Below, one piece after another: positions 1,912 to 35,822 of a stretch of 35,822 nucleotides of DNA (position 1 is the stretch's first letter; each line of letters starts with the position of its first letter). The DNA is from a virus. Taxonomy: Duplodnaviria; Heunggongvirae; Uroviricota; Caudoviricetes. Both the position numbers and the translations under genes were made by a program. The DNA lies in the IMG/VR virus record IMGVR_UViG_2681813232_000002; one strand, written 5' to 3'. The notes under the pieces were generated by a model. It made no database searches, was not told the DNA's origin, and worked only from the letters and a program-made list of their open reading frames with translations.

Positions 1912-2076
1912 TTAAAGGATAAAGGTATTCAAGCCTGACACATCATGCGCTGTATCGTCGCCGTATTCCCGTATTAACAGAGACCGTAGCCCGACGGGGA
2001 ACTCCTTCTGCGCGAGTGTGTGGGAATAATCAAAAACGATGCACACCGGGGTTACCGGGTACACATATTTCATCAT
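1912..2076 (-). CDS. Possible small ORF (54 aa), hypothetical
   Basis: Found by hand on the minus strand (MMKYVYPVTPVCIVFDYSHTLAQKEFPVGLRSLLIREYGDDTAHDVSGLNTFIL); below the 60-aa cutoff of the ORF track; no clear SD. Confidence 0.2.
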   Translation of the reverse strand: MMKYVYPVTPVCIVFDYSHTLAQKEFPVGLRSLLIREYGDDTAHDVSGLNTFIL

Positions 2077-2121
2077 GCCAGCGAGTCCGGTTCTGGCACG
2101 GAAGAAACCGGACGTTATGAT

Positions 2122-2532
2122 TTAGTGCGGAAATATTTGTGTAGTGTTCTGAATGTTCTCAGTAAAGAGTAATGAATTATCAAAGGTATAGTAATACCTT
2201 TTGTTTTCGTGGATATTTGTAATCCATCTGAAAACCCCTGCAGTAGCAAGATTTTTCCTGTATTCGTAAAATGATAACTCTCCTGATTTGAATCCTTTTA
2301 AGGTGGCTTCTATAAGGCATTTATTTTTTGAAAATCTTACATTTACAACCTTACCCTGTCCTTTTATTAAAACCGTATTATCGTTTTCAAGAACAAGATG
2401 AATATTCTCTGTAGCTAAATAGTAAATGTAATGTGAGACATTGTGACGTTTTAGTTCAGAATAAAACCAGTGATAGTTTAAATTATTTCGCACTTTATCG
2501 AATATTTGTTTAAAAATGGCAACCTGAGCCAT
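2122..2532 (-). CDS. DUF1398-family protein (YbcV/YdfO-like prophage accessory protein)
   Basis: AT-rich ORF. Start placed at the internal Met (MAQVAIFK...), which has SD GGAAGG 7 nt upstream and gives 136 aa. Sequence ([16 protein letters not shown]...[24 protein letters not shown]) matches my recollection of E. coli DLP12 YbcV. Confidence 0.6.
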
Positions 2533-2588
2533 TGTAGTACCTTCCATGTGATATGAGGGGCGTAGTCTGCACGATTATCTAAATTGCT

Positions 2589-2822
2589 TCAATCTGGTCT
2601 GATCTGTTTTCTGAGCAATTCAGTAATGTCACTCTTTTCTTTGTTTGCTTCAGGAGAAACTCTTTTTTCTGAGCACAGTCTCCGGCGGCAGGCTTCAATG
2701 ACCCAGGCTGAGAAATTCCCGGACCCTTTTTGATCAAGAGCGATGTTAATTTGTTCAATCATTTGGTTAGGAAAGCGGATGTTGCGGATTGTTGTTCTGC
2801 GGGTTCTGTTCTTCGTTGACAT
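2589..2822 (-). CDS. Small basic protein, YlcI/DUF3950-like, possibly ribbon-helix-helix
   Basis: 77-aa ORF (MSTKNRTRRTTIRNIRFPNQMIEQINIALDQKGSGNFSAWVIEACRRRL...). Same gene-order context as ylcI next to ybcV in DLP12. Confidence 0.45.
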   Translation of the reverse strand: MSTKNRTRRTTIRNIRFPNQMIEQINIALDQKGSGNFSAWVIEACRRRLCSEKRVSPEANKEKSDITELLRKQIRPD

Positions 2823-2989
2823 GAGGTTGTCCCGTATTCAGTGTCGCTGATTTGTATTGTCTGAAGTTGTTTTTACGTTAAGTTGATGCAGATCAATTAA
2901 TATGATACCTGCGTCATAATTGATTATTTGACGTGGTTTGATGGCGTAGATGCACGTTGTGACATGCAGATGATAATTATTATCATTTT

Positions 2990-3210
2990 GCGGGTCCTTT
3001 CCGGCGATCCGACAGGTTACGGGGCGGCGACCTCGCGGGTTTTCGCTATTTATGAAAATTTTCCGGTTTAAGGCATTTCCGTTCTTCTTCGTCGTAACTT
3101 AATGTTTTTATTTAAAATACCCCCTGAAAAGAAAGGAAACGACAGGTGCTGAAAACGAGCTTTTTGGCCTCTGTCGTTTCCTTTCTCTGTTTTTGTCCGT
3201 GGAATGAGCA
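2990..3210 (+). other. cos: Lambda-type cos site: 12-nt cohesive end GGGCGGCGACCT at 3022-3033, flanked by cosQ/cosB-like sequence up to the Nu1 start
   Basis: ...CCGACAGGTTACG|GGGCGGCGACCTCGCGGGTTTTCGCTATTTATGAAAATTTTCCGG... matches the joined right and left ends of lambda as I recall them. Confidence 0.85.

Positions 3211-3730: not shown

Positions 3731-3756
<26 letters not shown>
3211..3756 (+). CDS. nu1: Terminase small subunit
   Basis: 181 aa, MEVNKKQLADIFGASIRTIQNWQEQGMPVL...; essentially identical to recalled lambda gpNu1; lies just downstream of cos. Confidence 0.97.
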
Positions 3757-7437
<3,681 letters not shown>

Positions 7438-22764: not shown

Positions 22765-25700
22765 GTGAATATGGCAGTAAAGATTTCAGGTGTACTGAAA
22801 GACGGCGCAGGTAAACCGGTACAGAACTGCACAATCCAGCTGAAAGCAAAACGTAACAGCACCACGGTGGTGGCGAACACGGTGGCCTCAGAAAATCCGG
22901 ATGAAGCCGGGCGTTACAGCATGGACGTTGAGTACGGTCAGTACAGCGTTATTCTGTTGGTGGAAGGATTCCCGCCGTCACATGCCGGGACCATCACCGT
23001 GTATGAAGATTCTCAACCCGGTACGCTGAATGATTTTCTCGGTGCCATGACGGAGGATGATGCCCGTCCGGAGGCACTGCGCCGTTTTGAACTGATGGTG
23101 GAAGAGGTGGCGCGTAACGCGTCCGCAGTGGCGCAGAACACGGCAGCCGCGAAGAAGTCAGCCAGCGATGCCAGCACATCAGCCCGTGAGGCGGCAACCC
23201 GTGCGACTGATGCTGCAGGCTCAGCACGTGCAGCCAGCACGTCAGCCGGACAGGCCGCGTCGTCGGCTCAGTCAGCGTCTTCCAGCGCAGGAACAGCATC
23301 AACAAAGGCCACTGAAGCATCAAAAAGTGCTGCCGCCGCAGAGTCTTCAAAAAGCGCGGCAGCCACCAGTGCAGGTGCAGCGAAAACGTCGGAAATGAAT
23401 GCCGCAGCATCACAAAAATCTGCGGCCACATCTGCATCCACCGCGACCACGAAAGCGTCAGAAGCTGCCACCTCAGCCCGGGATGCGTCGGCTTCAAAAG
23501 TGGCGGCAAAATCATCAGAAACGAGCGCTGCCTCGAGCGCCGGCAGTGCAGCTTCCTCGGCAACGGCGGCAGGAAATTCCGCGAAGGCCGCAAAAACGTC
23601 TGAGACGAATGCGGATAACAGCGCACAGGCGGCAGCAGACTCACAAACTGCATCGGCAAACTCCGCGACAGCAGCCAAAAAATCAGAAACCAACGCGAAA
23701 AATAGTGAGGCAGCAGCAAAGGTCAGCGAAACCAACGCTAAAGCGTCAGAGAACAAGGCGAAAGAATATCTCGACAAGGTCGGGGGACTCGTCAGCCCGA
23801 TGACGCAATACGATTGGCCCGTTGTTACTGGTAATGAGTCTTTTTACATCAAGATCGCGAAACTTTCCGATCCCGGAAGCAACAATTGCCATGTAACGCT
23901 AATGGTTACTAATGCCGGTAACTACGGCTCCCCTTACGGAAACATTGACTTTATCGAGATCTCGGCGCGCGGTCTGCCTTCTTCGCTTACTGCGGATAAT
24001 GTATCCCGTTACCTGAGTATACGCCGCTTAGGGGCAACCGGGCTGACCGATGACAACCAGATGCGTTACGGCCTGGTTAAAGGTGATGGCTTTATTGAGG
24101 TTTGGGCCTTCCAGCGTGCATTTATCAACGGCGCAAAGGTTGCGGTACTGGCGCAGACGGCACGCACGGAATTATACATTCCAGACGGATTTGTTAAGCA
24201 AACCGCCGCGCCTTCTGGATATGTTGAAGGCAACGTTGTAAGGATTTACGACCAGGTAAACAAGCCGACTAAAGCAGATTTGGGTCTTTCTAATGCTATG
24301 CTTACAGGCGCTTTCGGTCTTGGCGGTAGCGGTCTTGTTTTGGATGGTAAAATGACCGATAAGGAACTACTACAAGAGCTAAGGGCGAAAGGTGGGTGTT
24401 TCTGGAGGTCAGGAAAACCAACAGGTAGCGAATCAACAATTTTCAGTCACGGTTCTGGTATATTCTCGCGGTGCGGCGATACGTGGTCAGCTATTAATAT
24501 CGATTACGAAAGCGGTAGAGTAAAGATTTACTCTAGTAACGATAATAGACTCAACAATGGTACTTTTAACATAAATGAGCTATACGGAACCAAATACAAG
24601 CCGTCGAAATCGGATGTTGGACTTAGCAATGTAACGAACGATGCGCAGGTAAAAAAAACCGGCGATATTATGTCAGGTGATCTGTCGATCACTAAAGCAA
24701 CACCTTCACTATACCTGCGTTCAAAAAGTGGAACCGCCCATGTATGGTTCCAAAATGAGGATCAGTCGGAACGCGGCGTTATTTTTGCGCCTACAAATAC
24801 TGATACGCTTGGCGAAGTTCACATCAGGGCTAAAAACGCAAAAGGTCAATCAAGTGGTGATTTTATTGTTCGTCACGACGGGATGGTAGAAGCCCTTAAT
24901 CTAAAAGTAACGAGAAAAATCAATGGAGCCACCGCAGAATTTGCAAACACAAGCACTAACTCCGATGATACCACGGTAAATATCAAAGGATCACAGCATA
25001 CGCCTTTGGTTTTAACGCGCAACAACACAATTAAAAACTTATCCATTGGGTTTAAGGTTGATGATGTTGATCAAAAATACCTGGGTATAGCTGGCGACGG
25101 TGATTTATATTTTGGTAGTTATTCTGACCACACAAAAAACAGCAAAGTGATCACACAAGCAAAACTAGATAGCGGGTTAACGGTAGGAGGTAAAACAACC
25201 TTTTCTGACCTTGCTACATTCAACGCAGGTATATCTGGAGCAATTGAACCTGAAAACATTTCTTCAGAGACTGTCGATCTTAATAATCTGACCATAAAAG
25301 ACACAGATAAAGGATCAGTTAAATACTATCAATGCAGAACTGCCGGAGGTGGTGCAAATATTACCAATAAGCCTGACGGCGTAGGCGGCAACTTTTTGCT
25401 TCGTGTAGAGTCAATTCGTAAGGTTAGTGATTCAGATTATATAAACATGCAAACGCTGATTAGCGGCGACAAAGGACGCGTGTATGTTCGTTTTGTTACT
25501 AATGGTAATTTTACAGCATGGAGCGAGCATGTTGTTTCAGGATGGAATCAGGATGTGACCGTCAGGTCGTTAACCTCGACGACTCCATCAAAATTAGGTG
25601 GCGGGCGGATTGATGTGCTTGGAAGTACGTCAGATTATGGCGAGATGAATTGTACTGTGCGTGGTGTTGATAGCACTGGAACTAATTCGGCGTGGTCTGT

Positions 25701-26529
25701 AGGTACATCAGAAAGCACAGGAAAAATGTTGTACCTGAAAAACCACAGAAGCAGCGCTCAAGTGCTGTTAAATGGCGATGATGGCGCGGTGCAACTACTA
25801 AGCGGTACTGTCAACGGTGCTACAGCACAGGCGCTAACCATCAACAAAGATGAGGTTAACTCAACTGTTAATTTAACCCTTACAAAACAATCAGGGACTG
25901 GCAATCGTTTTGTTTTACAGAACGCAGGTAATGCAGAACTACCGTTTTTTGTCAGTGTGTGGGGTTCCAGTACTCGACAAAACGTTCTTGAGGTTGGAAC
26001 GTCTGCTGCGTATCTGTTTTATGCGCAAAGAACGCCAGCAGGCCAGTTGTTTGATGTAAATGGCGCTATTAATTGCACAACGCTGAATCAGTCATCAGAC
26101 CGCGACCTTAAAGACGATATTCTCGTTATCAGCGACGCGACGAAAGCAATCCGTAAAATGAACGGATACACCTACACGCTCAGGGAAAACGGGATGCCTT
26201 ATGCTGGCGTTATTGCACAGGAAGTAATGGAGGCGATACCAGAAGCTGTGGGATCGTTTACTCATTACGGTGAAGAGTTGCAGGGACCAACGGTTGACGG
26301 CAACGAGCTACGCGAAGAAACGCGCTATCTTAATGTTGACTACGCCGCCGTGACGGGTTTACTTGTTCAGGTCGCCCGTGAAACAGATGATCGCGTTACC
26401 GCGCTGGAAGAGGAAAACACAACGCTACGTCAAAATCTGGCAACAGCAGGCACCCGGATCAGCACTCTGGAAAATCAGGTAAGCGAACTGGTTGCACTTG
26501 TCCGGCAGTTAACAGGAAGCGAACATTGA
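22765..26529 (+). CDS. stf: Side tail fibre protein (Stf-like), chimeric: lambda-Stf-like N-terminus, divergent distal region, C-terminal intramolecular-chaperone (peptidase S74-like) domain
   Basis: 1254 aa. N-terminus MAVKISGVLKDGAGKPVQNCTIQLKAKRNSTTV... matches recalled lambda Stf. Ala/Ser-rich repeat region follows. C-terminus has an S-D-R-D-L-K-D-D-I motif followed by a coiled-coil (LEEENTTLRQNL...LENQVSELVALVRQL). Confidence 0.9.
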   Translation: MNMAVKISGVLKDGAGKPVQNCTIQLKAKRNSTTVVANTVASENPDEAGRYSMDVEYGQYSVILLVEGFPPSHAGTITVYEDSQPGTLNDFLGAMTEDDARPEALRRFELMVEEVARNASAVAQNTAAAKKSASDASTSAREAATRATDAAGSARAASTSAGQAASSAQSASSSAGTASTKATEASKSAAAAESSKSAAATSAGAAKTSEMNAAASQKSAATSASTATTKASEAATSARDASASKVAAKSSETSAASSAGSAASSATAAGNSAKAAKTSETNADNSAQAAADSQTASANSATAAKKSETNAKNSEAAAKVSETNAKASENKAKEYLDKVGGLVSPMTQYDWPVVTGNESFYIKIAKLSDPGSNNCHVTLMVTNAGNYGSPYGNIDFIEISARGLPSSLTADNVSRYLSIRRLGATGLTDDNQMRYGLVKGDGFIEVWAFQRAFINGAKVAVLAQTARTELYIPDGFVKQTAAPSGYVEGNVVRIYDQVNKPTKADLGLSNAMLTGAFGLGGSGLVLDGKMTDKELLQELRAKGGCFWRSGKPTGSESTIFSHGSGIFSRCGDTWSAINIDYESGRVKIYSSNDNRLNNGTFNINELYGTKYKPSKSDVGLSNVTNDAQVKKTGDIMSGDLSITKATPSLYLRSKSGTAHVWFQNEDQSERGVIFAPTNTDTLGEVHIRAKNAKGQSSGDFIVRHDGMVEALNLKVTRKINGATAEFANTSTNSDDTTVNIKGSQHTPLVLTRNNTIKNLSIGFKVDDVDQKYLGIAGDGDLYFGSYSDHTKNSKVITQAKLDSGLTVGGKTTFSDLATFNAGISGAIEPENISSETVDLNNLTIKDTDKGSVKYYQCRTAGGGANITNKPDGVGGNFLLRVESIRKVSDSDYINMQTLISGDKGRVYVRFVTNGNFTAWSEHVVSGWNQDVTVRSLTSTTPSKLGGGRIDVLGSTSDYGEMNCTVRGVDSTGTNSAWSVGTSESTGKMLYLKNHRSSAQVLLNGDDGAVQLLSGTVNGATAQALTINKDEVNSTVNLTLTKQSGTGNRFVLQNAGNAELPFFVSVWGSSTRQNVLEVGTSAAYLFYAQRTPAGQLFDVNGAINCTTLNQSSDRDLKDDILVISDATKAIRKMNGYTYTLRENGMPYAGVIAQEVMEAIPEAVGSFTHYGEELQGPTVDGNELREETRYLNVDYAAVTGLLVQVARETDDRVTALEEENTTLRQNLATAGTRISTLENQVSELVALVRQLTGSEH
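23095..23760 (+). repeat. Low-complexity Ala/Ser/Thr-rich repeat region inside stf (GCx/TCx/ACx codon repeats)
   Basis: Protein segment ...SASDASTSAREAATRATDAAGSARAASTSAGQAASSAQSASSSAG... repeated over about 220 aa; it generates the many spurious overlapping ORFs on both strands here. Confidence 0.7.
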
Positions 26530-26712
26530 TATCCTTCAAGCTCTGAAGGAGGCTGTTCCCGGTACGTTCAGACTGTTGTTGAGCTGGAAATCGCAACGGA
26601 GGAAGAGAAAGCGTTACTGGCCGCATGGAAAAAGTATCGGGTGTTGCTGAACCGTGTTGATACATCAACTGCACCTGATATTGAGTGGCCGGAAGAACCA
26701 GACACAATGTAA
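26530..26712 (+). pseudogene. Remnant 3' end of a tail-fibre assembly (tfa) gene, no start codon
   Basis: Directly after the stf stop the same frame stays open for 60 codons, ending ...[45 protein letters not shown], the conserved C-terminal signature of Tfa proteins as I recall it. No ATG or SD. Confidence 0.45.
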
Positions 26713-27246
26713 GCGAAAAAGAAAAACCGCAGACACGACGTATGCAGGACGTGCTGCGGTTGGCTGGTGAACTTCCGATAGTGCGAGTATTGAATGATTT
26801 CAAGCTGTTATCGATTTTACGTATTTTTGTATGAGAGGATTTCCACCACCTCCCACCGACCATCTAAGACTTTATGCCACTGTCCCTAGGACTGCTATGT
26901 ACTAGGAGCGGATGTTAAACTCAGACTCGTTTCAGCTACATTGCGTTTTGAATAATATTCCATCATAATAACTCTTTGAAAAATGTGATCTTTTCATTTA
27001 TAACACTGATGACTTGCTTATCTCATTGGGATATCGGAGGAGAATACTTAACTATGACAAGCCCGATTATTATGACACTGGCTATATTATATAGATTGAT
27101 ATTAAAATGTAGGATTAGGTTCTTGCCAAGGTGTCAAGATTTACAGATAGGTTTAAAACCATATAAATATGTTTTACGGTGAGATACAATACATATTGTA
27201 AGGCATAAACGCTTGGTAAAATTTTAATTATTGGAAGAAGCTAATC

Positions 27247-30200
27247 ATGGAACCCATATCAATTACAGTGGCAACTTATGTAGCAACTAAACTTATTGAT
27301 CAATTCATCTCTCAAGAAGGATATGGTTGTATTAAGAAAGCATTATTCCCCCAAAAAAGATATGTGGATAGATTATATCAACTAATTGAAGAGACGGCAA
27401 TTGAGTTTGAAGAAACATATCCAGTAGAAAGTGGAGCAATACCATTTTATCATTCCGAACCATTGTTTGAGATGTTGAATGAGCACATCTTTTTTAAAGA
27501 GTTCCCTGACAAAGAGATATTATTAGACAAGTTCAAAGAATATCCAAGTATCACTCCCCCAACTCAACAACAACTCAGCCTTTTTTATGAGATGTTATCA
27601 TTAAAAATCAATAATTGTTCGAAGTTAAAAAAGCTACATATCGAAGAAACGTATAAAGAAAAAATATTCGATATTAATGAAGAGCTCATTCAAGTCAAAC
27701 TTATTTTACGGTCTATAGATGAGAAACTAACTTTTCACTTAAGTGATGGTTGGTTAAATGAAAAAAATAGTCAAGCAATAGCTGACTTGGGAGGTCGATA
27801 CACACCCGAACTCAACGTAAAGCTAGAAATAGCAGAGATATTTGATGGCCTCGGTAGAACTAATGATTTTTCTAAAATATTTTATTCGCATATAGATAGC
27901 TTTCTGGTCGCTGGAAAGAAATTACATAGTTGCGATGTAATTTCCTCAGAATTATTTGAAATAAACCAGTCCTTAAAAGAAATTTCTGATATATATCAGG
28001 AGATTAATTTTTCTAAATTAGATGAAATCCCTATAAATAAATTTAATAACTATGTTTCTAGCTGCCAGACAGCTATTGGCGGAGCGGTATCAATATTGTG
28101 GGAACTCCGAGAAAAGTCAGAGCAAGTAGGTGAAACCAAGCATTACAGTGATAAGTATTCATCTACTCTGCGAATGCTTCGGGAATTTGACTATGCGTGC
28201 AATGAATTACGTATATTCATTAATTCAACAACAGTGAAGTTGGCTAACAACCCATTCTTACTTCTCGAAGGAAAAGCAGGAATTGGTAAGTCTCATTTAC
28301 TGGCTGATGTGATTAAAAATCGAATTGCTTCTGGGTATCCTTCACTACTCATACTAGGGCAACAACTTACTTCAGATGAATCTCCATGGTCACAAATCTT
28401 CAAGAGATTACAGCTTAAAATCACTTCTCGTGAATTCCTAGAAAAACTGAATTTATATGGCAAAAAAACAGGAAAAAGAGTCTTAGTTTTTATTGATGCT
28501 ATTAATGAAGGTAATGGAAATAAATTCTGGAATGACAATATTAACAGTTTTGTCGATGAAATCAGATGCTTTGAATGGCTTGGTCTGATAATGTCAGTCA
28601 GAACAACATATAGAAATGTAACAATTTCACATGAGAATGTTGTGCGAAATAATTTTGAAATTCATGAACATATTGGATTCCAGAACGTTGAGTTGGAAGC
28701 GGTTAGTCTATTTTATGATTATTACAATATTGAGAGGCCTTCATCTCCTAACCTTAATCCAGAGTTTAAAAATCCTCTATTTCTTAAGTTATTGTGTGAA
28801 GGCATTAAGAAAAATGGTTTAACCAAAGTGCCTGTTGGATTTAATGGGATTTCAAATATTTTTAACTTTTTAGTTGAAGGGGTAAATAAATCATTAGCAT
28901 CGCCAAAAAAATATGCATTCGATCCCAGTTTTCCTCTTGTTAAAGATGCTCTCAATGAAATCATAAAATTCAAATTAGAGATTGGTCGTAATAGTATTTC
29001 ACTTAAAGATGCTCACTCAGTGGTTCAATCTGTAGTTAATGATTATGTTGCTGATAAAACCTTCCTCAGCGCCTTGATTGACGAAGGATTATTGACTAAA
29101 GGCATAGTGAGAAATGATGATAATTCTACTGAGGAAGTAGTTTATGTGGCTTTTGAAAGGTTTGATGATCATTTAACTGTTAATTTTTTATTAAATGATG
29201 TTGAAAATATCGAAAGTGAATTTAAGCCTGATGGTCGTCTGAAAAAATATTTTCATGATGAATGTGATTTTTATATAAAATCGGGAATAGTAGAGGCGTT
29301 GTCTATTCAATTGCCAGAAAGGTATGAAAAAGAGCTTTATGAATTTCTGCCGGAGTTCAGCAATAATCTTAAATTACTAGAAGCCTTTATTGATAGCTTG
29401 ATATGGCGCGATATTAAGGCTATTGATTTCGAAAAAATTAGACCTTTCATCAATGAACATGTTTTTAAATTTAAAGATAGTTTTGATCATTTCCTCGAGG
29501 CAGTGATCTCTATTTCAGGTTTAGTTGGCCATCCCTTTAATGCTAATTTCTTGCATGATTGGCTAAAAGATTATTCTTTGGCAAATCGAGATTCGTTTTG
29601 GACTACAGAACTTAAATATAAATATAGTGAAGACTCAGCATTTAGGCATCTAATCGATTGGGCATGGGCCAGAACAGATAAAAGCTTTGTTTCGGATGAG
29701 TCAATCGAGCTAGTTGCAACTAGTTTATGCTGGTTTTTAACTTCTAGTAACCGAGAACTTCGAGATTGCTCAACTAAGGCTTTAGTGAGTTTACTCGAGC
29801 CAAGAATTCCTGTATTGAGAAAAATAATTGATAAGTTTTATGGTGTAAATGATCCTTACGTTTGGGAAAGAATATTTGCAGTTGCATTAGGCTGTACATT
29901 GCGAACTGATAATATTAAAGAACTAAAATATTTAGCCGAAACTGTTTACCAAAAGGTATTTTGTTCTAAGTATGTGTATCCAAATATATTACTTAGAGAT
30001 TATGCTAGAGAGATTATTGAATTTGCTAATCATCTTGGATTGGAACTTGAAAGCATTGAATTATCCAAGACTAGACCACCCTACAACAGCATTTGGCCTG
30101 ACAAGATTCCTTCAAAAGAGGAACTAGAGTCCCTTTATGATAAAGAACCTTATCGGGAACTCTGGAGCTCTATTATGGAAGATGGTGACTTTTCACGATA

Positions 30201-31701
30201 TACTATTGGAACAAATTATAATCATTCTGATTGGTCTGGTTGCAAGTTTAATGAAACCCCTGTTGACCGTAAGCAAGTTTTTAAAACTTTCAAATGTAAA
30301 CTAACTGATCAACAAAAAGACTTGTATGATGCCACAGATCCTTTCATTTATGATGATAAATGCGAAGGAATTAAATTTGGTCGTGTGGTCGGTAGAAAAG
30401 CACAGGAAGAAATAAAGGCGAGCAAGAAATTATTTAAGAATTCATTGTCATACGATCTGTTAAGTGAGTTTGAAAATGAAATAGAGCCATACCTGGATCA
30501 TAATAATAATCTGCTGGAAACTGATAAACACTTTGATCTTCGACTAGCTCAACAATTTATATTCAATCGTGTTATAGAGCTTGGTTGGGATCCGGAGAAG
30601 CATGGTAATTTTGACCAACAAATAGGAACTGGACGTGGACGTAGAGAGGCATTCCAAGAACGGATTGGTAAAAAATACCAATGGATTGCTTATTATGAAT
30701 ACATGGCAAGGCTAGCCGATAATTTTACTCGTTTTGAAGGTTATGGTGACGAACGAAAGGAAAATCCATACCAAGGGCCATGGGAGCCTTACGTAAGAGA
30801 TATAGATCCCACTATCTTACTTAAAGAAACTGGAACGAAAAAAATAAGCAATAAAGAAATGTGGTGGCTTAATGATGAAGTGTTTGATTGGACTTGCTCT
30901 AATGAAGACTGGGTTAAAAGTTCTACTACTATAACTAATTCATATGCTTTTATTGAAGTTAAAGATGATAATGGTGATGAATGGATAGTATTAGAAAGTC
31001 ATCCATCATGGAAAGAACCAAAAATTATTGGAAACGATGATTGGGGGCACCCACGAAAAGAGGTTTGGTATCAGATCAGAAGTTATATCGTTAAAGTTGA
31101 AGAATTTGAAAATTTTAGATGTTGGGCAATAGCTCAAGACTTTATGGGCAGGTGGATGCCGGAATGTACTGATAGATACCAATTATTTAATAGGGAGTAC
31201 TATTGGTCCGAAGCATTTAAGTCTTTTAAATCAGATTATTATGGTGGATCTGACTGGACTTCGGTAACAGACCGGGAGTCTGGAGCTAAGATAGCTGATG
31301 TTAGTGTCACTTCGATTAATTATTTGTGGGAAGAGGAGTTCGACAAATCAAAAATAGAAACTTTGAATTTTTTGAAGCCTAGTAACTTAATCTTTGAAAA
31401 GATGGGATTAAAAAGTGGGGAAGTAGAGGGTAGCTTCAATGATGAAAATGGAACTATGGTTTGCTTTGCAGCTGAAGCTGTATATGCTTCAAAGCCGCAT
31501 CTACTTGTTAAAAAAGAACCATTTTTAACAATGTTAAGGGACAATGGTTTTGAAATCGTTTGGACATTATTAGGTGAAAAGGGCGTTATAGGGGGCTCAC
31601 TCATATCAAGTCATCATTATGGTCGACAGGAGTTTAGTGGAGCATTTTATTATGAAGACAGTCAGCTAACAGGAAGTCATAAAACTAGCTTTACGAGATA
31701 A
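27247..31701 (+). CDS. Large P-loop NTPase (STAND/NACHT-like Walker A and B), 1484 aa; candidate single-gene anti-phage defence protein
   Basis: Strong SD (GGAAGAAG) 7 nt upstream of the ATG. Walker A FLLLEGKAGIGKSHLLADV (about residue 335); Walker B RVLVFIDAINEG (about residue 410). Visibly AT-rich compared with the flanking phage genes. Sits in the b-region position between the tail fibre and attR. Confidence 0.85.
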   Translation: MEPISITVATYVATKLIDQFISQEGYGCIKKALFPQKRYVDRLYQLIEETAIEFEETYPVESGAIPFYHSEPLFEMLNEHIFFKEFPDKEILLDKFKEYPSITPPTQQQLSLFYEMLSLKINNCSKLKKLHIEETYKEKIFDINEELIQVKLILRSIDEKLTFHLSDGWLNEKNSQAIADLGGRYTPELNVKLEIAEIFDGLGRTNDFSKIFYSHIDSFLVAGKKLHSCDVISSELFEINQSLKEISDIYQEINFSKLDEIPINKFNNYVSSCQTAIGGAVSILWELREKSEQVGETKHYSDKYSSTLRMLREFDYACNELRIFINSTTVKLANNPFLLLEGKAGIGKSHLLADVIKNRIASGYPSLLILGQQLTSDESPWSQIFKRLQLKITSREFLEKLNLYGKKTGKRVLVFIDAINEGNGNKFWNDNINSFVDEIRCFEWLGLIMSVRTTYRNVTISHENVVRNNFEIHEHIGFQNVELEAVSLFYDYYNIERPSSPNLNPEFKNPLFLKLLCEGIKKNGLTKVPVGFNGISNIFNFLVEGVNKSLASPKKYAFDPSFPLVKDALNEIIKFKLEIGRNSISLKDAHSVVQSVVNDYVADKTFLSALIDEGLLTKGIVRNDDNSTEEVVYVAFERFDDHLTVNFLLNDVENIESEFKPDGRLKKYFHDECDFYIKSGIVEALSIQLPERYEKELYEFLPEFSNNLKLLEAFIDSLIWRDIKAIDFEKIRPFINEHVFKFKDSFDHFLEAVISISGLVGHPFNANFLHDWLKDYSLANRDSFWTTELKYKYSEDSAFRHLIDWAWARTDKSFVSDESIELVATSLCWFLTSSNRELRDCSTKALVSLLEPRIPVLRKIIDKFYGVNDPYVWERIFAVALGCTLRTDNIKELKYLAETVYQKVFCSKYVYPNILLRDYAREIIEFANHLGLELESIELSKTRPPYNSIWPDKIPSKEELESLYDKEPYRELWSSIMEDGDFSRYTIGTNYNHSDWSGCKFNETPVDRKQVFKTFKCKLTDQQKDLYDATDPFIYDDKCEGIKFGRVVGRKAQEEIKASKKLFKNSLSYDLLSEFENEIEPYLDHNNNLLETDKHFDLRLAQQFIFNRVIELGWDPEKHGNFDQQIGTGRGRREAFQERIGKKYQWIAYYEYMARLADNFTRFEGYGDERKENPYQGPWEPYVRDIDPTILLKETGTKKISNKEMWWLNDEVFDWTCSNEDWVKSSTTITNSYAFIEVKDDNGDEWIVLESHPSWKEPKIIGNDDWGHPRKEVWYQIRSYIVKVEEFENFRCWAIAQDFMGRWMPECTDRYQLFNREYYWSEAFKSFKSDYYGGSDWTSVTDRESGAKIADVSVTSINYLWEEEFDKSKIETLNFLKPSNLIFEKMGLKSGEVEGSFNDENGTMVCFAAEAVYASKPHLLVKKEPFLTMLRDNGFEIVWTLLGEKGVIGGSLISSHHYGRQEFSGAFYYEDSQLTGSHKTSFTR

Positions 31702-31802
31702 AAATGAATCTCAGAGCTGAATATATAAGTAGTATTAGAAACCGGGTTATACTTAAGAAATCAATCTTAAGTGTGGCAGTCGAATGGTAGCTAATATGCT
31801 AG

Positions 31803-31838
31803 CGGCGCTAATGCCTGTTTGTTGCTCATAACAGGCAT
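31803..31838 (+). terminator. Possible hairpin terminator downstream of the large NTPase gene
   Basis: AATGCCTGTT-TGTTGCTCAT-AACAGGCATT inverted repeat followed by a T-containing tract; weak. Confidence 0.3.
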
Positions 31839-32084
31839 TCACTTTAGTTATGGCAGAAAAGTATACATGCTGGGTTGGGAAAGTGTGAAAGAAAGGAAGA
31901 TTGCTGCGCCGTTTGTCGTCACGTTTATCTTCATTGGCTATGCAAGTCGTAATAAAAGGTGGGACAAAACTGAGACACATAAAGCCTCGCAATGGCTTGC
32001 AAGGCTTTACATGTTTTGATGTGGTGGGATGTGTGAGCGCAGTGTTGATGGGGTAATGCTTTGAATTAGAAGCGGATTCTTATA

Positions 32085-32130
32085 ATTCGTAATGCGAAGG
32101 TCGTAGGTTCGACTCCTATTATCGGCACCA
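32085..32130 (+). repeat. 46-bp copy of the 3' end of tRNA-Thr(CGU) (thrW-type), ending in CCA; att core duplicate (probable prophage attR), not a functional tRNA
   Basis: ATTCGTAATGCGAAGGTCGTAGGTTCGACTCCTATTATCGGCACCA matches the anticodon-loop to 3' end of E. coli tRNA-Thr(CGU) as recalled. The D-arm and 5' acceptor strand are absent upstream. Confidence 0.8.
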
Positions 32131-32294
32131 TCACCTAGTTTTCCCAAGTCAACCCACATCAACAAAATCATTTAAAAACATATATATTACGTTGTTTTCA
32201 TACGTTTGAGGTCAACCCTTGTCTCTTGAAATCAACACGCGGTTGGGGGCACAATCAGGGGCATGTTCTGTTCGATCTAGGAAATGTGCCCCCA

Positions 32295-33485
32295 ATGATG
32301 CTGAATGCCCGCAAGGTTGAAGCTGCGAAAGGAAAAGAGAAGAGCTACAAGCTGTTTGATGGAGGTGGCCTATACCTTCAGGTCGAACCTAATGGCTCGC
32401 GTTACTGGCGTATGAAATACCGTTTTGCTGGTAAAGAGAAACGATTGTCCTTTGGTGTTTATCCAACAGTCACACTTGCTGATGCCAGACAAAAACGAGA
32501 AGACGCGAAGAAACTACTCGCAGCAGGTGAAGATCCCGGCGAAGTCAAAAAAGCCAAAAAGCAGGCTTTAAATGCAGCGAGTGAGACACTTAACCCATTC
32601 AGAGAAGTGGCGTTAGAGTGGCACAAAATGAAATCACCCAAATGGTCTGAGGGCTATGCTTCCGACATCATTGAGGCATTCGAGAAAGACATTTTCCCGC
32701 ATATTGGGCACAGACCTATAGCTGATATTCAGCCCCTTGAACTGCTTGAAGTTCTGAGGTTGATAGAAGCTCGAGGCGCTATGGAGAAAGCGAAGAAAGT
32801 CCGTCAGCGATGCGGTGAAGTTTTTCGCTATGCCATCGTAACGGGTAGGGCAATCTACAATCCGGCACCGGATCTTGCCAGTGCGATGCAAGGACATGAA
32901 GCAGTCCACTATCCATTCCTCAAAGCCAACGAACTACCGGAGTTCTTTAATGCCCTTAATTCTTATTCAGGAAGTCCAATTGTATTGTTGGGGGCGCATT
33001 TACTTATCCTGACAGGTCTACGAACTGGAGAACTACGAGCAGGTGAGTGGCGAGAGGTGGATTTTGATAATGCGGTGTGGGAGATCCCAAAAGAACGTAT
33101 GAAAATGCGTAGGAGCCATATTGTCCCGTTGTCAAAACAAGCATTATCCCATCTCAAAAGTTTGAAAGAACTAACTGGGAACTACCCGCTGATGTTCCCT
33201 GGACGCAACGATCCCAGCAAATTTATGAGTGAAGCAAGCATTAATCAGGTGTTTAAACGTATTGGATATGCAGGGCGTGTTACGGGGCATGGTTTCAGGC
33301 ATACGATGAGTACAATCCTACATGAGAAAGGATTTAACAGCGCTTGGATTGAAACCCAGCTTGCTCATTCGGACAAAAACTCTATTCGTGGAATTTATAA
33401 CCATGCCCAATATCTCGAAGGGAGAAGAGAAATGATGCAATGGTATGCTAATTATTTATCTGAGCAAATTGGTACTCATAAATGA
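32295..33485 (+). CDS. int: Tyrosine recombinase/integrase, P4-like (genomic-island type)
   Basis: MMLNARKVEAAKGKEKSYKLFDGGGLYLQVEPNGSRYWRMKYRFAGKEKRLSFGVYPTVTLADAR... is the typical P4-type N-terminal arm-binding domain. C-terminal catalytic region has R...HGFRHT...Y-like motifs. The ORF track starts at 32226 but there is no ATG before 32295. Confidence 0.9.
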   Translation: MMLNARKVEAAKGKEKSYKLFDGGGLYLQVEPNGSRYWRMKYRFAGKEKRLSFGVYPTVTLADARQKREDAKKLLAAGEDPGEVKKAKKQALNAASETLNPFREVALEWHKMKSPKWSEGYASDIIEAFEKDIFPHIGHRPIADIQPLELLEVLRLIEARGAMEKAKKVRQRCGEVFRYAIVTGRAIYNPAPDLASAMQGHEAVHYPFLKANELPEFFNALNSYSGSPIVLLGAHLLILTGLRTGELRAGEWREVDFDNAVWEIPKERMKMRRSHIVPLSKQALSHLKSLKELTGNYPLMFPGRNDPSKFMSEASINQVFKRIGYAGRVTGHGFRHTMSTILHEKGFNSAWIETQLAHSDKNSIRGIYNHAQYLEGRREMMQWYANYLSEQIGTHK

Positions 33486-34306
33486 ATATTTTAAAAATTA
33501 ATAATACTGATTCTCTGCTCAGAGATTACTACCAGTTGGATGAAGCTTCAGAAAAAATTGGTTGTAGTGAAAAGGATATACTCTGGTTTGCCAGAGAACG
33601 AGATGTAGAGCTATGCATGGAATTCCATGATGATGAGTATGATGTTTCATGTGGTTTGAAGATTGATGGTCAAATAGATGAGTTCTTATCTAATCTGAAA
33701 TATTTACCACGAGATAGAAATGGCAATATTATGTTGTCAGACTTAAGTTCTATAAGAATCCCTGATGAAGATAATTTAATTGATAAAAATGGTTTTATTC
33801 GATGCTTCATATCCGGTTTATGGGCTGTTGATTATGAATATAAAGATCTGTTAGTTAAGCATGAGGGGCAACCGGATTCCTGGCCTATTCATTTTCTACT
33901 GGCGGGTACGCCTAATATAAATTGTAAGGTAATTCTTTATGTAAATTATGATGAAAAAGAAAATTATTATCTTTTTGAGGTTTTGTGGATTACAAAGGTA
34001 CAGATTCAAAAATTCATTGATATAGTCTTATGCGAACAAAAGCGGATAAAAAACGCCAATAAATATAAATCACAATCTGAGGCGCAAAAACAAAAACATG
34101 CTGTTCCTCGAGCTGAAATACTCATGGCTATTATTTCGCTCTATCATCGTGATATGAGGCTAAGAAGAGAGAGTCCAGCAGCGATAGCTGATTATCTTTT
34201 TCAACATGCCAGTGAGTTCTGGCCTAAGACCGGAGAACCGCCTTTGAGCTATGATACTGTTGTTAGTTTGCTACGTAGTTGCATGAAAAACATTAAGTTT
34301 AACTAA
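33482..34306 (+). CDS. Hypothetical protein, AT-rich, translationally coupled to the integrase (ATGA overlap)
   Basis: 274-aa ORF with markedly AT-rich codon usage; no family recognised. Confidence 0.7.
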   Translation: MNILKINNTDSLLRDYYQLDEASEKIGCSEKDILWFARERDVELCMEFHDDEYDVSCGLKIDGQIDEFLSNLKYLPRDRNGNIMLSDLSSIRIPDEDNLIDKNGFIRCFISGLWAVDYEYKDLLVKHEGQPDSWPIHFLLAGTPNINCKVILYVNYDEKENYYLFEVLWITKVQIQKFIDIVLCEQKRIKNANKYKSQSEAQKQKHAVPRAEILMAIISLYHRDMRLRRESPAAIADYLFQHASEFWPKTGEPPLSYDTVVSLLRSCMKNIKFN

Positions 34307-34431
34307 ATATTAACAATTGTTGTGGCTAATGATTTTGAATTTTTTTCATTAGTCACATTTTTCTCATTTATAACCTATGTTTTAATTTTCCGTGTTGAAG
34401 CCAATAGACTTAGATAAACGGAGAATGATGA

Positions 34432-34722
34432 ATGTTATCTAAACATGATAATACTACTTTGCAACGACCTTCAATGGATTCTCTGATCGATATGAAGTTT
34501 ATTACTTCCGATTGTTTATTAAGTGATAAATGGATTTATCGATTGATTTCTCTGAATCGCTTTCCAAAACCTATAAAAATAGGTCGGATGTCACGATGGC
34601 GCGCTGCTGATTATTATAAGTGGCGAGATGGGTTTGAAGAAAACTCAGGTCAACAGTTTGAGGGGATGAGAAATAAGGCAAGAGCAATTAATAAAGGGAA
34701 TAGATTATCACCTACTCCCTAA
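34432..34722 (+). CDS. alpA: AlpA-family (phage_AlpA) helix-turn-helix regulator / excisionase-like protein
   Basis: Segment DMKFITSDCLLSDKWIYRLISLNRFPKPIKIGRMSRWRAADYYKWRD fits the AlpA pattern (HTH, FPKP.K.G, W..E...W). Start codon uncertain (34432, 34474 or 34492). Confidence 0.6.
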   Translation: MLSKHDNTTLQRPSMDSLIDMKFITSDCLLSDKWIYRLISLNRFPKPIKIGRMSRWRAADYYKWRDGFEENSGQQFEGMRNKARAINKGNRLSPTP

Positions 34723-34754
34723 GCCTTAATTGATAGTTAGTAATATTTAACTGA

Positions 34755-34929
34755 TTAGCCTTTAGGGTCAATCCCGCGTGATTGGAGTTCTTTGCGTAAA
34801 ATTCTTTTAATCCAAGTTGCCAACGCGCTATCTCCATCTTTGCGCATTTCGTTTTCGAGTTGCAACCTAAAATCGTCGGTAAGACGCATTTGGAATGGTG
34901 GAGAACGTTTCTCTTGTGGTGTTGACATG
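34755..34929 (-). pseudogene. Arc-like ribbon-helix-helix repressor gene, apparently disrupted by a 1-nt frameshift
   Basis: From ATG (34929) the frame reads MSTPQEKRSPPFQMRLTDDFRLQ then shifts. The -1 frame continues LENEMRKDGDSALATWIKRILRKELQSRGIDPKG to a TAA. The joined sequence has an Arc-like strand-helix-helix pattern. Shift is at a T-run near 34860-34862. Confidence 0.35.
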
Positions 34930-34951
34930 GTAATTACCCTAGAATATGATG
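34923..34951 (+). promoter_or_regulatory. Candidate sigma70 promoter: TTGACA, 17-nt spacer, TATGAT, reading rightward
   Basis: TTGACA at 34923-34928, 17-nt spacer, TATGAT at 34946-34951; near-consensus hexamers. Confidence 0.5.
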
Positions 34952-34967
34952 ACTACATGGTAATTAC
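34930..34967 (+). promoter_or_regulatory. Two copies of the perfect 10-bp palindrome GGTAATTACC flanking the -10 (candidate operators)
   Basis: ACATGGTAATTACC occurs at 34926-34939 and 34954-34967; the palindrome cores are 28 bp apart centre to centre. Confidence 0.45.
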
Positions 34968-35059
34968 CATTGTAAGTATAGTTCGCTTGTAAAAGCAATG
35001 CCCGATTGTGCGGGAACACAAATCGGGCATTTAACCAACCGTTATAAGAGGTAACGAAG

Positions 35060-35236
35060 ATGGCTAAACAGAAGTGTACCTGGTTATTTGCGGCGATCAA
35101 CCGCAGTCAACGCAATGCCCGTCCTGTGATGTTAAGGATCACCGCAGATAACGAGCGGTCAGCGCGGCGCAGACTTGCCCCGGACTATGTACTGAGCTTT
35201 GCCGGGCGCATTCCCTGCGGAGGTGAACATGCGTAA
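35060..35236 (+). CDS. Small ORF (58 aa), hypothetical; first gene downstream of the candidate promoter
   Basis: SD GAGG 7-8 nt upstream of the ATG (MAKQKCTWLFAAINRSQRNARPVMLRITADNERSARRRLAPDYVLSFAGRIPCGGEHA). Its stop overlaps the next start. Below the ORF-track cutoff. Confidence 0.4.
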   Translation: MAKQKCTWLFAAINRSQRNARPVMLRITADNERSARRRLAPDYVLSFAGRIPCGGEHA

Positions 35237-35588
35237 TTATCCGCATCCCGGCGAACGCTGGCAGCATGAACGTGGCTGGACGGTCACGATTATCCGATTA
35301 ATAGAAGCCTCGCCCTCTGTGGCGCTGGTTAATCCTGAATTCAGCTGTGAAGTGCTGATACGTCATGACAGCGACAACCAGCTTTCTTCCTGCCCTCTGG
35401 CATGGTTTGAACAGCGATATACGCGCCTGTTTGATGTACCGCTCTTTAAGCCTGCACCAGCTCCTGCAGGCGGTAGTGGTTCCGGCCCGCTGACACTGCA
35501 TCCGTCTGTGCTATTTATCCGCTGGCGGGAGCGTAGCATATGGCGTTCTGCTGAGCCTGATGACGGTCACTATTCAAAGTTTCTCTGA
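35229..35588 (+). CDS. Hypothetical protein (119 aa)
   Basis: Strong SD GGAGGTG just upstream of ATG 35229 (MRNYPHPGERWQHERGWTVTII...). The ORF track starts at 35199 but the internal start has the better RBS. Confidence 0.55.
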   Translation: MRNYPHPGERWQHERGWTVTIIRLIEASPSVALVNPEFSCEVLIRHDSDNQLSSCPLAWFEQRYTRLFDVPLFKPAPAPAGGSGSGPLTLHPSVLFIRWRERSIWRSAEPDDGHYSKFL

Positions 35589-35618
35589 CACAATACCGCT
35601 GAAAACGGAGTAATCCAC

Positions 35619-35822
35619 GATGAATATTTCAAACGGGCACAACGGTGCTCAGGGCCACACTTTGCCTGAAAAACACAATACCGGTGTTTTTGCCTATGGG
35701 TTGTCAGAGGACCGTTTCGGAAAGCTGACCCGCGCAAGAAATGCCTGCGACATGCTCCAGCTTCTCTTTTCTGAATACCCGTCTCAGGCCGGAGCACTGG
35801 ACACTGGCTGTGCGCATGGTGT
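35619..35822 (+). CDS. Hypothetical protein, 3'-truncated by the window edge
   Basis: ATG at 35619 (MNISNGHNGAQGHTLPEKHNTGVFAYGLSEDRFGKL...); frame open to the end of the window. Confidence 0.45.

Follow-up and report, generated by a model that had tools for sequence, protein, structure and literature searches.

EcAvs2, an AVAST type 2 (Avs2) protein, is the closest described relative of the gene considered here, which occupies nt 27247..31701 (+) of IMG/VR virus record IMGVR_UViG_2681813232_000002, a stretch of 35,822 nt referred to below as the window. The gene is almost certainly avs2, encoding the 1484-aa EcAvs2, a single-protein, nucleotide-binding leucine-rich repeat (NLR)-like receptor for pattern recognition, and is borne as a moron adjacent to the attachment (att) site of a thrW-integrated, lambda-like prophage. 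The mechanism outlined below is that of Evans et al. (Nat Commun 2026, PMC13601566), who studied the version of the protein with D168. EcAvs2 defends against T7-like PhiV-1, T1-like ZL19, T7, and Pal009; whole-genome screens traced toxicity to the terminase only, the ATPase domain of which was sufficient; and most of 37 very divergent terminases activated EcAvs2, with Ksap1 and possibly T4 vs.8 as alternative triggers (PMC13601566).

EcAvs2 oligomerises when terminase is present, as observed by size-exclusion chromatography, and a cryo-electron microscopy (cryo-EM) structure at 2.3 Å showed a flat C4 tetramer in which each protomer carries one terminase, with an interface formed by the ATP-bound STAND ATPase (PMC13601566). 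In the infected cell, the C-terminal TPR domain, a beta-rich "C-terminal sensor" and a helical extension, the last lying between effector and ATPase and contributing to terminase binding, shape one large pocket, which buries 2833.5 Å^2 of terminase surface. In it, the large terminase of the infecting phage is bound by its ATPase domain, in part through a "bridging" ATP that contacts R1132, E1364, and D981. Following terminase binding, the ATP-loaded STAND ATPase (K348) builds the tetramer and gathers four N-terminal effectors, and the cell dies or is arrested ahead of completion of the phage cycle, that is, abortive infection. Defence was abolished by K348A and weakened by combinations among the substitutions R1132A, D981A, E1364A, E1362A, E1444A, E1462A, and W1266A (PMC13601566).

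The protein predicted for the gene in the window aligned from residue 1 to 1484 with residues 1 to 1484 of PDB chain 9o4e_A ("AVAST type 2 anti-phage system protein Avs2"; 3442.7 bits), the sole mismatch being residue 168, which was G here and D in the PDB chain (identity 1483/1484). Entry 9O4E is the cryo-EM entry whose sequence is the published EcAvs2. Likewise, the coding sequence (CDS) differed by 1 nucleotide and 1 residue (G168/D168) from the DETEC-E223 gene for WP_063118745.1, the accession given for "ECAvs2" by Wein et al., and it was 100% identical in DNA sequence to the RefSeq avs2 of NZ_CP041392.1, protein WP_061359862.1. The NCBIfam Avs2 equivalog model NF041813 was matched at 1689.6 bits, about 690 bits above its cutoff of 1000, with aa 178-1476 covering the model from position 1 to 1317 of 1317. 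Six PADLOC models for Avs2 also matched, the best being PDLC02164 (1751.1 bits, aa 22-1483 versus model positions 58-1497 of 1504). There is no evidence contradicting the identification as EcAvs2.

The ORF (open reading frame) began with ATG and comprised 1484 codons plus a stop. Its GC content was 0.343 compared to 0.555 in the phage structural region (nt 3000-26529), and an open frame of 4.4 kb in DNA of 34% GC cannot have arisen by chance; the ORF is therefore real. A single Walker A sequence, GKAGIGKS, was located at aa 342-349 (28270..28293, +) with K348 as its lysine, and the Walker B region, VLVFIDAINEG, at aa 412-422 (28480..28512, +), where the aspartate D417 lies 69 residues past the Walker A lysine. 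Thus, the Walker A lysine and the Walker B acidic residue that mark a STAND ATPase are both present. The position, length, AT-richness relative to the phage backbone and both nucleotide-binding motifs are as given in the initial annotation, a reading of the raw sequence by a model.

Searches against general domain libraries were less informative. A Pfam scan of the whole protein yielded only sub-threshold matches to P-loop families, namely nSTAND6 (18.4 bits, threshold 27.7), NACHT (PF05729; 13.1 bits, gathering threshold 26.7) and NB-ARC (12.4 bits), the NACHT match spanning only the P-loop at aa 338-357. No Pfam match was obtained with the N-terminal 330 aa or with aa 601-1484, and a PHROGs search of the protein was also empty. 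Because of these results the gene seemed unassignable from sequence alone, but the lack of Pfam matches does not point to novelty. The initial annotation had described a STAND/NACHT-like NTPase as a candidate single-gene anti-phage system of the Avs/AVAST type and had proposed searches with profile hidden Markov models (HMM); these were unambiguous for Avs2 with PADLOC and NCBIfam, so that the STAND assignment (Avs2 models, K348/D417, identity with EcAvs2) and the defence assignment (PADLOC, NF041813, near-identity to EcAvs2) both held. Its resemblance to NACHT did not extend to membership of the Pfam family, which was rejected on the score of PF05729. The suggestion that this may be an undescribed variant is refuted by the match of 1483/1484 residues to the solved EcAvs2 (WP_063118745.1, PDB 9O4E) together with the curated Avs2 models; the gene had already been named avs2 by NCBI. 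The functional call was thus right and the novelty nil, the gene being already characterised. Reading the raw sequence alone did recognise a STAND-type defence gene and its prophage moron position, and the locus holds little new biology, since a 2.3 Å structure, triggers and a curated annotation model already exist for the system.

The residues probed in the EcAvs2 study were all present in the window protein, including K348, D981, R1130, R1132, W1266, E1362, E1364, E1444, and E1462, and aa 951-1484 were identical to 9O4E. Eight of these, the contacts to terminase and to the bridging ATP (D981, R1130, R1132, W1266, E1362, E1364, E1444, and E1462, with roles according to Evans et al., PMC13601566), fall in the late TPR domain and the C-terminal beta-rich sensor, which are specific to Avs2 (30187..31632, +). 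The initial annotation had placed a possible sensor at the C-terminus, in agreement with the published TPR and beta-rich terminase sensor. Being one residue off the assayed EcAvs2, the window protein would act by the same terminase-sensing route, and the outcome for a lysogen would be superinfection immunity against unrelated tailed phages.

The N-terminal part is the variable portion of the protein. Since the Avs2 core HMM began at aa 178, the effector proper comprises at most about 177 aa (aa 1-177, 27247..27777, +), a helical domain of putative activity outside the NCBIfam Avs2 core and without a Pfam family. An N-terminal effector of about 330 aa had been proposed in the initial annotation; the effector stood and its extent did not, because the start of the Avs2 core together with the published structure divides this region into the effector and the helical extension (aa about 178-330, boundaries approximate; 27778..28236, +), the latter forming part of the terminase-binding surface (PMC13601566). 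Most Avs2 proteins carry Mrr-like nucleases at this place; the effector type of EcAvs2 is rarer, was invisible in the cryo-EM map, and is conserved chiefly at non-polar positions (Evans et al., PMC13601566).

A possible mode of action is suggested by Bab, a small helical death protein that is kin to pore-forming domains and has a hydrophobic helix 1 cupped by four helices (Ibarlosa et al., bioRxiv 10.1101/2024.11.07.622273). The N-terminus of Bab (~15 residues) is conserved in Bell/Hell domains, Avast2, and bNACHT02, 11, and 23 and was termed the "MEPIS" motif, and Avast2 defends less well against T4 when the MEPIS region is mutated (Ibarlosa et al., 10.1101/2024.11.07.622273). The N-terminus of the window protein read MEPISITVATYVATKLIDQFISQE, starting literally with MEPIS; the motif and the N-terminal hydrophobic helix occupied aa 1-24 (27247..27318, +), with MEPISITVATYVATKLIDQFI as the MEPIS-type start of the protein and MEPISITVATYVA as a stretch of the helix. 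Searching for homologues of aa 1-181 gave 18 sequences, mostly fragmentary Avs2-type N-termini, among which A13, G25, Y26, F34, Y39, L43, I47, E55, P59, P66, F67, S70, L73, F74, and L77 were invariant; these positions were mostly non-polar or aromatic.

By analogy with Bab/Bell, the fungal HeLo/HET-S domain and the CC domain of plant ZAR1, the effector would be non-enzymatic, and tetramerisation would cluster four effectors, whose freed hydrophobic "MEPIS" helices would disturb the inner membrane. Membrane disruption is favoured because the MEPIS helix is common to the pore-forming domains of Bab/Bell/HeLo, and we lean, with modest confidence, towards damage of the membrane by the helices of clustered effectors. 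Several observations weigh against this step. Evans et al. (PMC13601566) called the function of the effector unknown. An AlphaFold2 (AF2) model of aa 1-181 had a predicted local distance difference test (pLDDT) score of 64 overall; its confident helical core covered about aa 40-135, and a helix was predicted at aa 5-24, unpacked against the core, in a region (aa 1-35) with pLDDT below 50. A fold search with this mediocre model, of the kind proposed in the initial annotation, gave no specific match and no pore-former, and a phmmer search of the effector against PDB sequences recovered 9O4E itself only; none of the three thus gave independent structural evidence for a Bell/HeLo fold.

The missing pore-former would also fit an EcAvs2 effector that spares the membrane and works instead by amyloid-like or other higher-order assembly, by recruitment of a host partner or by an unrecognised enzymatic activity. 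Evans et al. (PMC13601566) noted a resemblance of the first 15 residues to amyloid-signalling death proteins and suggested that "membranes or interacting partners" may be required by the domain; AlphaFold 3 modelling suggested that the effector tetramerises; and at least eight other systems carry effectors of the EcAvs2 type as fusions, one of them with a PIN domain. However, the region shared with Avast2 is helix 1 of Bab, which is hydrophobic and N-terminal and is predicted to line a pore, and not the C-terminal BASS11 amyloid motif of Bab (Ibarlosa et al., 10.1101/2024.11.07.622273); Bab is reported to shift towards the periphery of the cell and to alter membranes; and conserved polar or charged residues are few for a catalytic site. 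An effector that leaves the membrane intact is the main alternative and less probable than one that damages it.

Residue 168, the only difference from the assayed protein, varied among homologues (D/N/G/A) and lies outside all motifs, in a variable linker before the conserved core. The protein used in the published assays, mutagenesis and structure determination is one conservative-looking allele away. Two points nevertheless count against an active defence gene in the lysogen: defence by the G168 allele is predicted from the assayed D168 protein, from which it differs by one non-synonymous change, and expression from the prophage is presumed. A consensus promoter scan of the 535-bp upstream gap gave 20 sites compared to 21.2 expected, none above background; a putative TTTACA-16-TATAAA near 27141-27168 was noticed by eye only and was absent from the scan calls. 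The AT-rich non-coding leader (26724..27246, +; GC 0.369) travels with avs2 and is presumed to carry the promoter. Ahead of the ATG by 6-13 nt, a Shine-Dalgarno-like GGAAGAAG was found at 27233..27240 (+) by direct reading; it was moderate and not the strong ribosome binding site that had initially been described.

These points would suit a passenger gene, intact yet silent or impaired in the lysogen through an inactivating G168 or the lack of a working promoter. This appears very improbable, as the frame was intact over 4455 nt of AT-rich DNA, position 168 is naturally variable, and the G168 allele was found again, with 100% nucleotide identity or close to it, in genomes of human, dog, chicken, cattle, and seawater origin. 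Moreover, the leader shared 95.6% identity across 525 bp with the region upstream of avs2 in pCE-O153H30-A (see below), although the CDS there differed at 163 nucleotides, and such conservation of the leader fits a functional regulatory region.

Among 5426 complete E. coli genomes, avs2 was found in 87-88 as a single copy with at least 96.3% identity, and every full-length match among those listed (25 and 24 of 87) was named avs2. A DNA search of the phages deposited in INPHARED found none carrying the gene, the protein search of the same collection gave two matches only, both weak and partial, and no match to avs2 was obtained among the plasmids of PLSDB. A "hypothetical protein" of Staphylococcus phage UPMK_1 (MG543995.1, 152.8 kb; nt 102838-104856, -) shared 30.8% identity with aa 635-1428 of Avs2, the TPR/sensor region (E = 7e-41), and may be an Avs2-like sensor on a large phage.

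Up to the att core described below, the window is a lambda-like prophage, with a large terminase gene at 3731..5656 (641 aa) and a side tail fibre gene at 22765..26529 (1254 aa). In NZ_CP041392.1, which aligned to the window over 26500-32131 at 100.0% identity, the gene order annotated by PGAP was lysis genes, nohD-type small terminase, large terminase, portal, S49 protease, decoration and major capsid proteins, tail genes, J, Lom, and side tail fibre, and the ORFs of the window agreed with this order where compared. A 46-nt sequence, ATTCGTAATGCGAAGGTCGTAGGTTCGACTCCTATTATCGGCACCA, located at 32085..32130 (+), was a unique exact match within the window and duplicated the 3'-end of tRNA-Thr (thrW); ARAGORN found no complete tRNA gene in the window. 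In NZ_CP041392.1, the same 46 nt form the 3'-end of an intact tRNA-Thr beside proA, the position of thrW, and this intact thrW adjoins the prophage integrase about 45 kb away. Homology to the window ended at 32131 in most genomes. From the thrW repeat, the intact thrW and int at the other end and this end of homology, 32085..32130 is identified as the attR core and avs2, therefore, as the last phage gene before attR.

The position between the tail fibre genes and the att core, the GC content (0.34 versus 0.555) and the conserved flanks of its own are those of a prophage moron next to att, the equivalent of the lambda b region. The initial annotation had likewise put the gene between the tail-fibre module and attR, and the attR core is now placed as the thrW fragment, 383 bp past avs2. 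These 383 bp, from the avs2 stop to the att core (31702..32084, +), constitute the phage arm, in which nt 31702-31974 were 87.6% identical to the spacer between avs2 and attP in pCE-O153H30-A, and nt 31821-32019 resembled sequence of phage 21 and lambda-like phages. A hairpin with an 18-bp stem at 31975..32014 (+), the sole feature above background in a scan for promoters and terminators, is a candidate terminator; it may be a bidirectional terminator or part of an arm-type binding region.

The avs2 gene of pCE-O153H30-A (NZ_CP172337.1) lends independent support to this placement. The entry is deposited as a circular "plasmid" of 44,831 bp and is actually a complete temperate-phage genome, encoding a contractile tail and baseplate, an HK97-type protease and capsid, a P27-family small terminase (TerS), lambda-like O/P/ren/Q, and lysis genes. 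Its avs2 (39222-43676) was 96.3% identical to that of the window, with 73 amino-acid and 163 nucleotide differences, and its int (37767-38885) had the same accession (WP_001132557.1) as the integrase of the thrW prophage. The two genes converge on a junction made up of the avs2-side arm, the last 26-27 nt of thrW and the int-side arm, the latter being 100% identical to the sequence past thrW in the lysogen. The exact 46-nt att core was absent from this genome, and by direct alignment its attP shared only the last 26-27 nt of thrW. Given the same integrase, leader, avs2 and attP next to another virion module, the sequences argue that an int-attP-avs2 module is common to different virion backbones, so that avs2 can be described as attP-adjacent cargo of thrW-integrating temperate phages, a modest addition to the context of the system. 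As further observations on this region, pCE-O153H30-A had a short repeat of the GGGGA type between avs2 and attP, and about 110 bp between the avs2-side arm and the thrW core of the window (31978..32084, with the hairpin 31975..32014) were absent from its attP.

At the upstream edge of the insertion point, a 135-bp remnant of the tail fibre assembly gene tfa was present (26578..26712, +), annotated in NZ_CP041392.1 by PGAP as a pseudogene "missing N-terminus", and a full-length tfa was found at the same place in DETEC-E223. Related alleles of the side tail fibre elsewhere were annotated by PGAP as "S74 family peptidase" (intramolecular chaperone), and in DETEC-E223 a different fibre allele was followed by an intact 194-aa tfa. 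The tfa remnant here, compared to the other fibre allele with intact tfa in DETEC-E223, points to replacement of the fibre tip by recombination just upstream of the avs2 cassette. A second moron-like insertion is the AT-rich patch at window nt about 2000-3000 (GC 0.38) between the lysis and terminase genes, the counterpart of which in NZ_CP041392.1 encodes YlcI/YnfO-family and DUF1398 proteins (PGAP) on the opposite strand.

An att-adjacent avs2 raises the question of how a phage can carry a terminase sensor alongside a terminase of its own. The prophage in the window possesses its own 641-aa large terminase (3731..5656) alongside a receptor reportedly triggered by most of the 37 divergent terminases, and carriers of avs2 have at least two terminase annotations, the 641-aa large terminase (TerL) of the window and the P27-TerS/HK97-head type of pCE-O153H30-A. 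A broad terminase sensor on temperate phages with different terminases implies either an undescribed self-avoidance or a limit on the carrier. Taken jointly, we propose only tentatively that the MEPIS effector is a resistosome-like pore triggered by oligomerisation and that carriers evade self-recognition or else have their own lytic growth limited by avs2. If so, killing by a pore would set this protein apart from the nuclease Avs proteins, and self-recognition at induction would be avoided by terminase escape, timing or an inhibitor, or otherwise avs2 would curb the lytic growth of its carrier. Both questions, effector mechanism and coexistence with a terminase, concern EcAvs2 as a whole rather than the window in particular.

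The remainder of the window, nt 32131-35822, was a separate P4-like satellite lying in tandem at thrW, directly past the attR of the prophage. Its integrase (32295..33485) was of the P4 type, with the domains Arm-DNA-bind_3, Phage_int_M, and Phage_integrase; it had been considered as a part of the avs2 element and was rejected as such, since it belongs to the satellite. An AlpA-like helix-turn-helix protein (weak Pfam match) and an Icd-like protein were also encoded, and the ORFs of the satellite within the window included 33482..34306 and 34432..34722. The former (+, 274 aa) lies in DNA of roughly 34-37% GC, its start overlapping the integrase stop (ATGA); it had no match in Pfam, PADLOC or NCBIfam and was annotated by PGAP as "hypothetical protein" (WP_001471076.1). 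Because of its position directly past the satellite integrase, it is a candidate accessory or defence gene. In DETEC-E223, the satellite runs on with a TOPRIM/DUF927 primase, sid/psu/delta-like genes and the DRT3a/b (DRT3) defence system; the window ends before this primase-to-DRT3 part.

Compared with the known systems, the window gene was closest to EcAvs2 (WP_063118745.1, PDB 9O4E), with which it shared the length of 1484 aa, all motifs and all the sensor residues that have been mutated. The setting was also the same as in DETEC-E223, that is, lambdoid tail fibre, avs2, thrW att repeat, and P4-like satellite; the only differences were G168 in place of D168 and the tfa gene, cut to the 135-bp remnant in the window and intact in DETEC-E223. 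KpAvs2 of Klebsiella pneumoniae (Bechon et al. 2024) belongs to the same Avs2 sensor/STAND family, with terminase and Ksap1 as triggers and abortive infection as the outcome. However, its N-terminal effector is an Mrr-like nuclease that degrades DNA, whereas the window protein has the rarer, putatively non-enzymatic "MEPIS" effector; KpAvs2 shares an operon with genes for radical-SAM and DUF6375 proteins, whereas avs2 in the window stands alone; and KpAvs2 additionally senses Ksap2 and some terminase nuclease domains. SeAvs3/Avs1 (PDB 8DGC) follows the same tripartite logic, forming a tetramer and recognising the same target, the terminase ATPase domain, but unlike EcAvs2 it has another TPR domain, an elongated rather than flat tetramer, no bridging ATP, and a nuclease effector.

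Other relatives share only parts of the protein. The "MEPIS"-type hydrophobic helix of roughly 15 residues is held in common with Bab "Babybell", Bell, fungal HeLo-Hell and plant CC(HeLo) domains, and mutations in this helix impair defence in Bab (G11K) and Avast2 alike (Ibarlosa et al., 10.1101/2024.11.07.622273), whereas the remainder of the effector (about aa 35-177) had no detectable match in sequence or fold. Bab is a separate protein of 109 aa switched on by amyloid templating from Agp; the effector in the window is fused to its receptor and, by analogy, would be switched on by tetramerisation. The bNACHT proteins and the members of Pfam NACHT are STAND P-loop NTPases of the same tripartite architecture, and bNACHT02, 11, and 23 share the MEPIS-type N-terminus; from the Pfam family the window protein is separated by its far sub-threshold score, confined to the P-loop.

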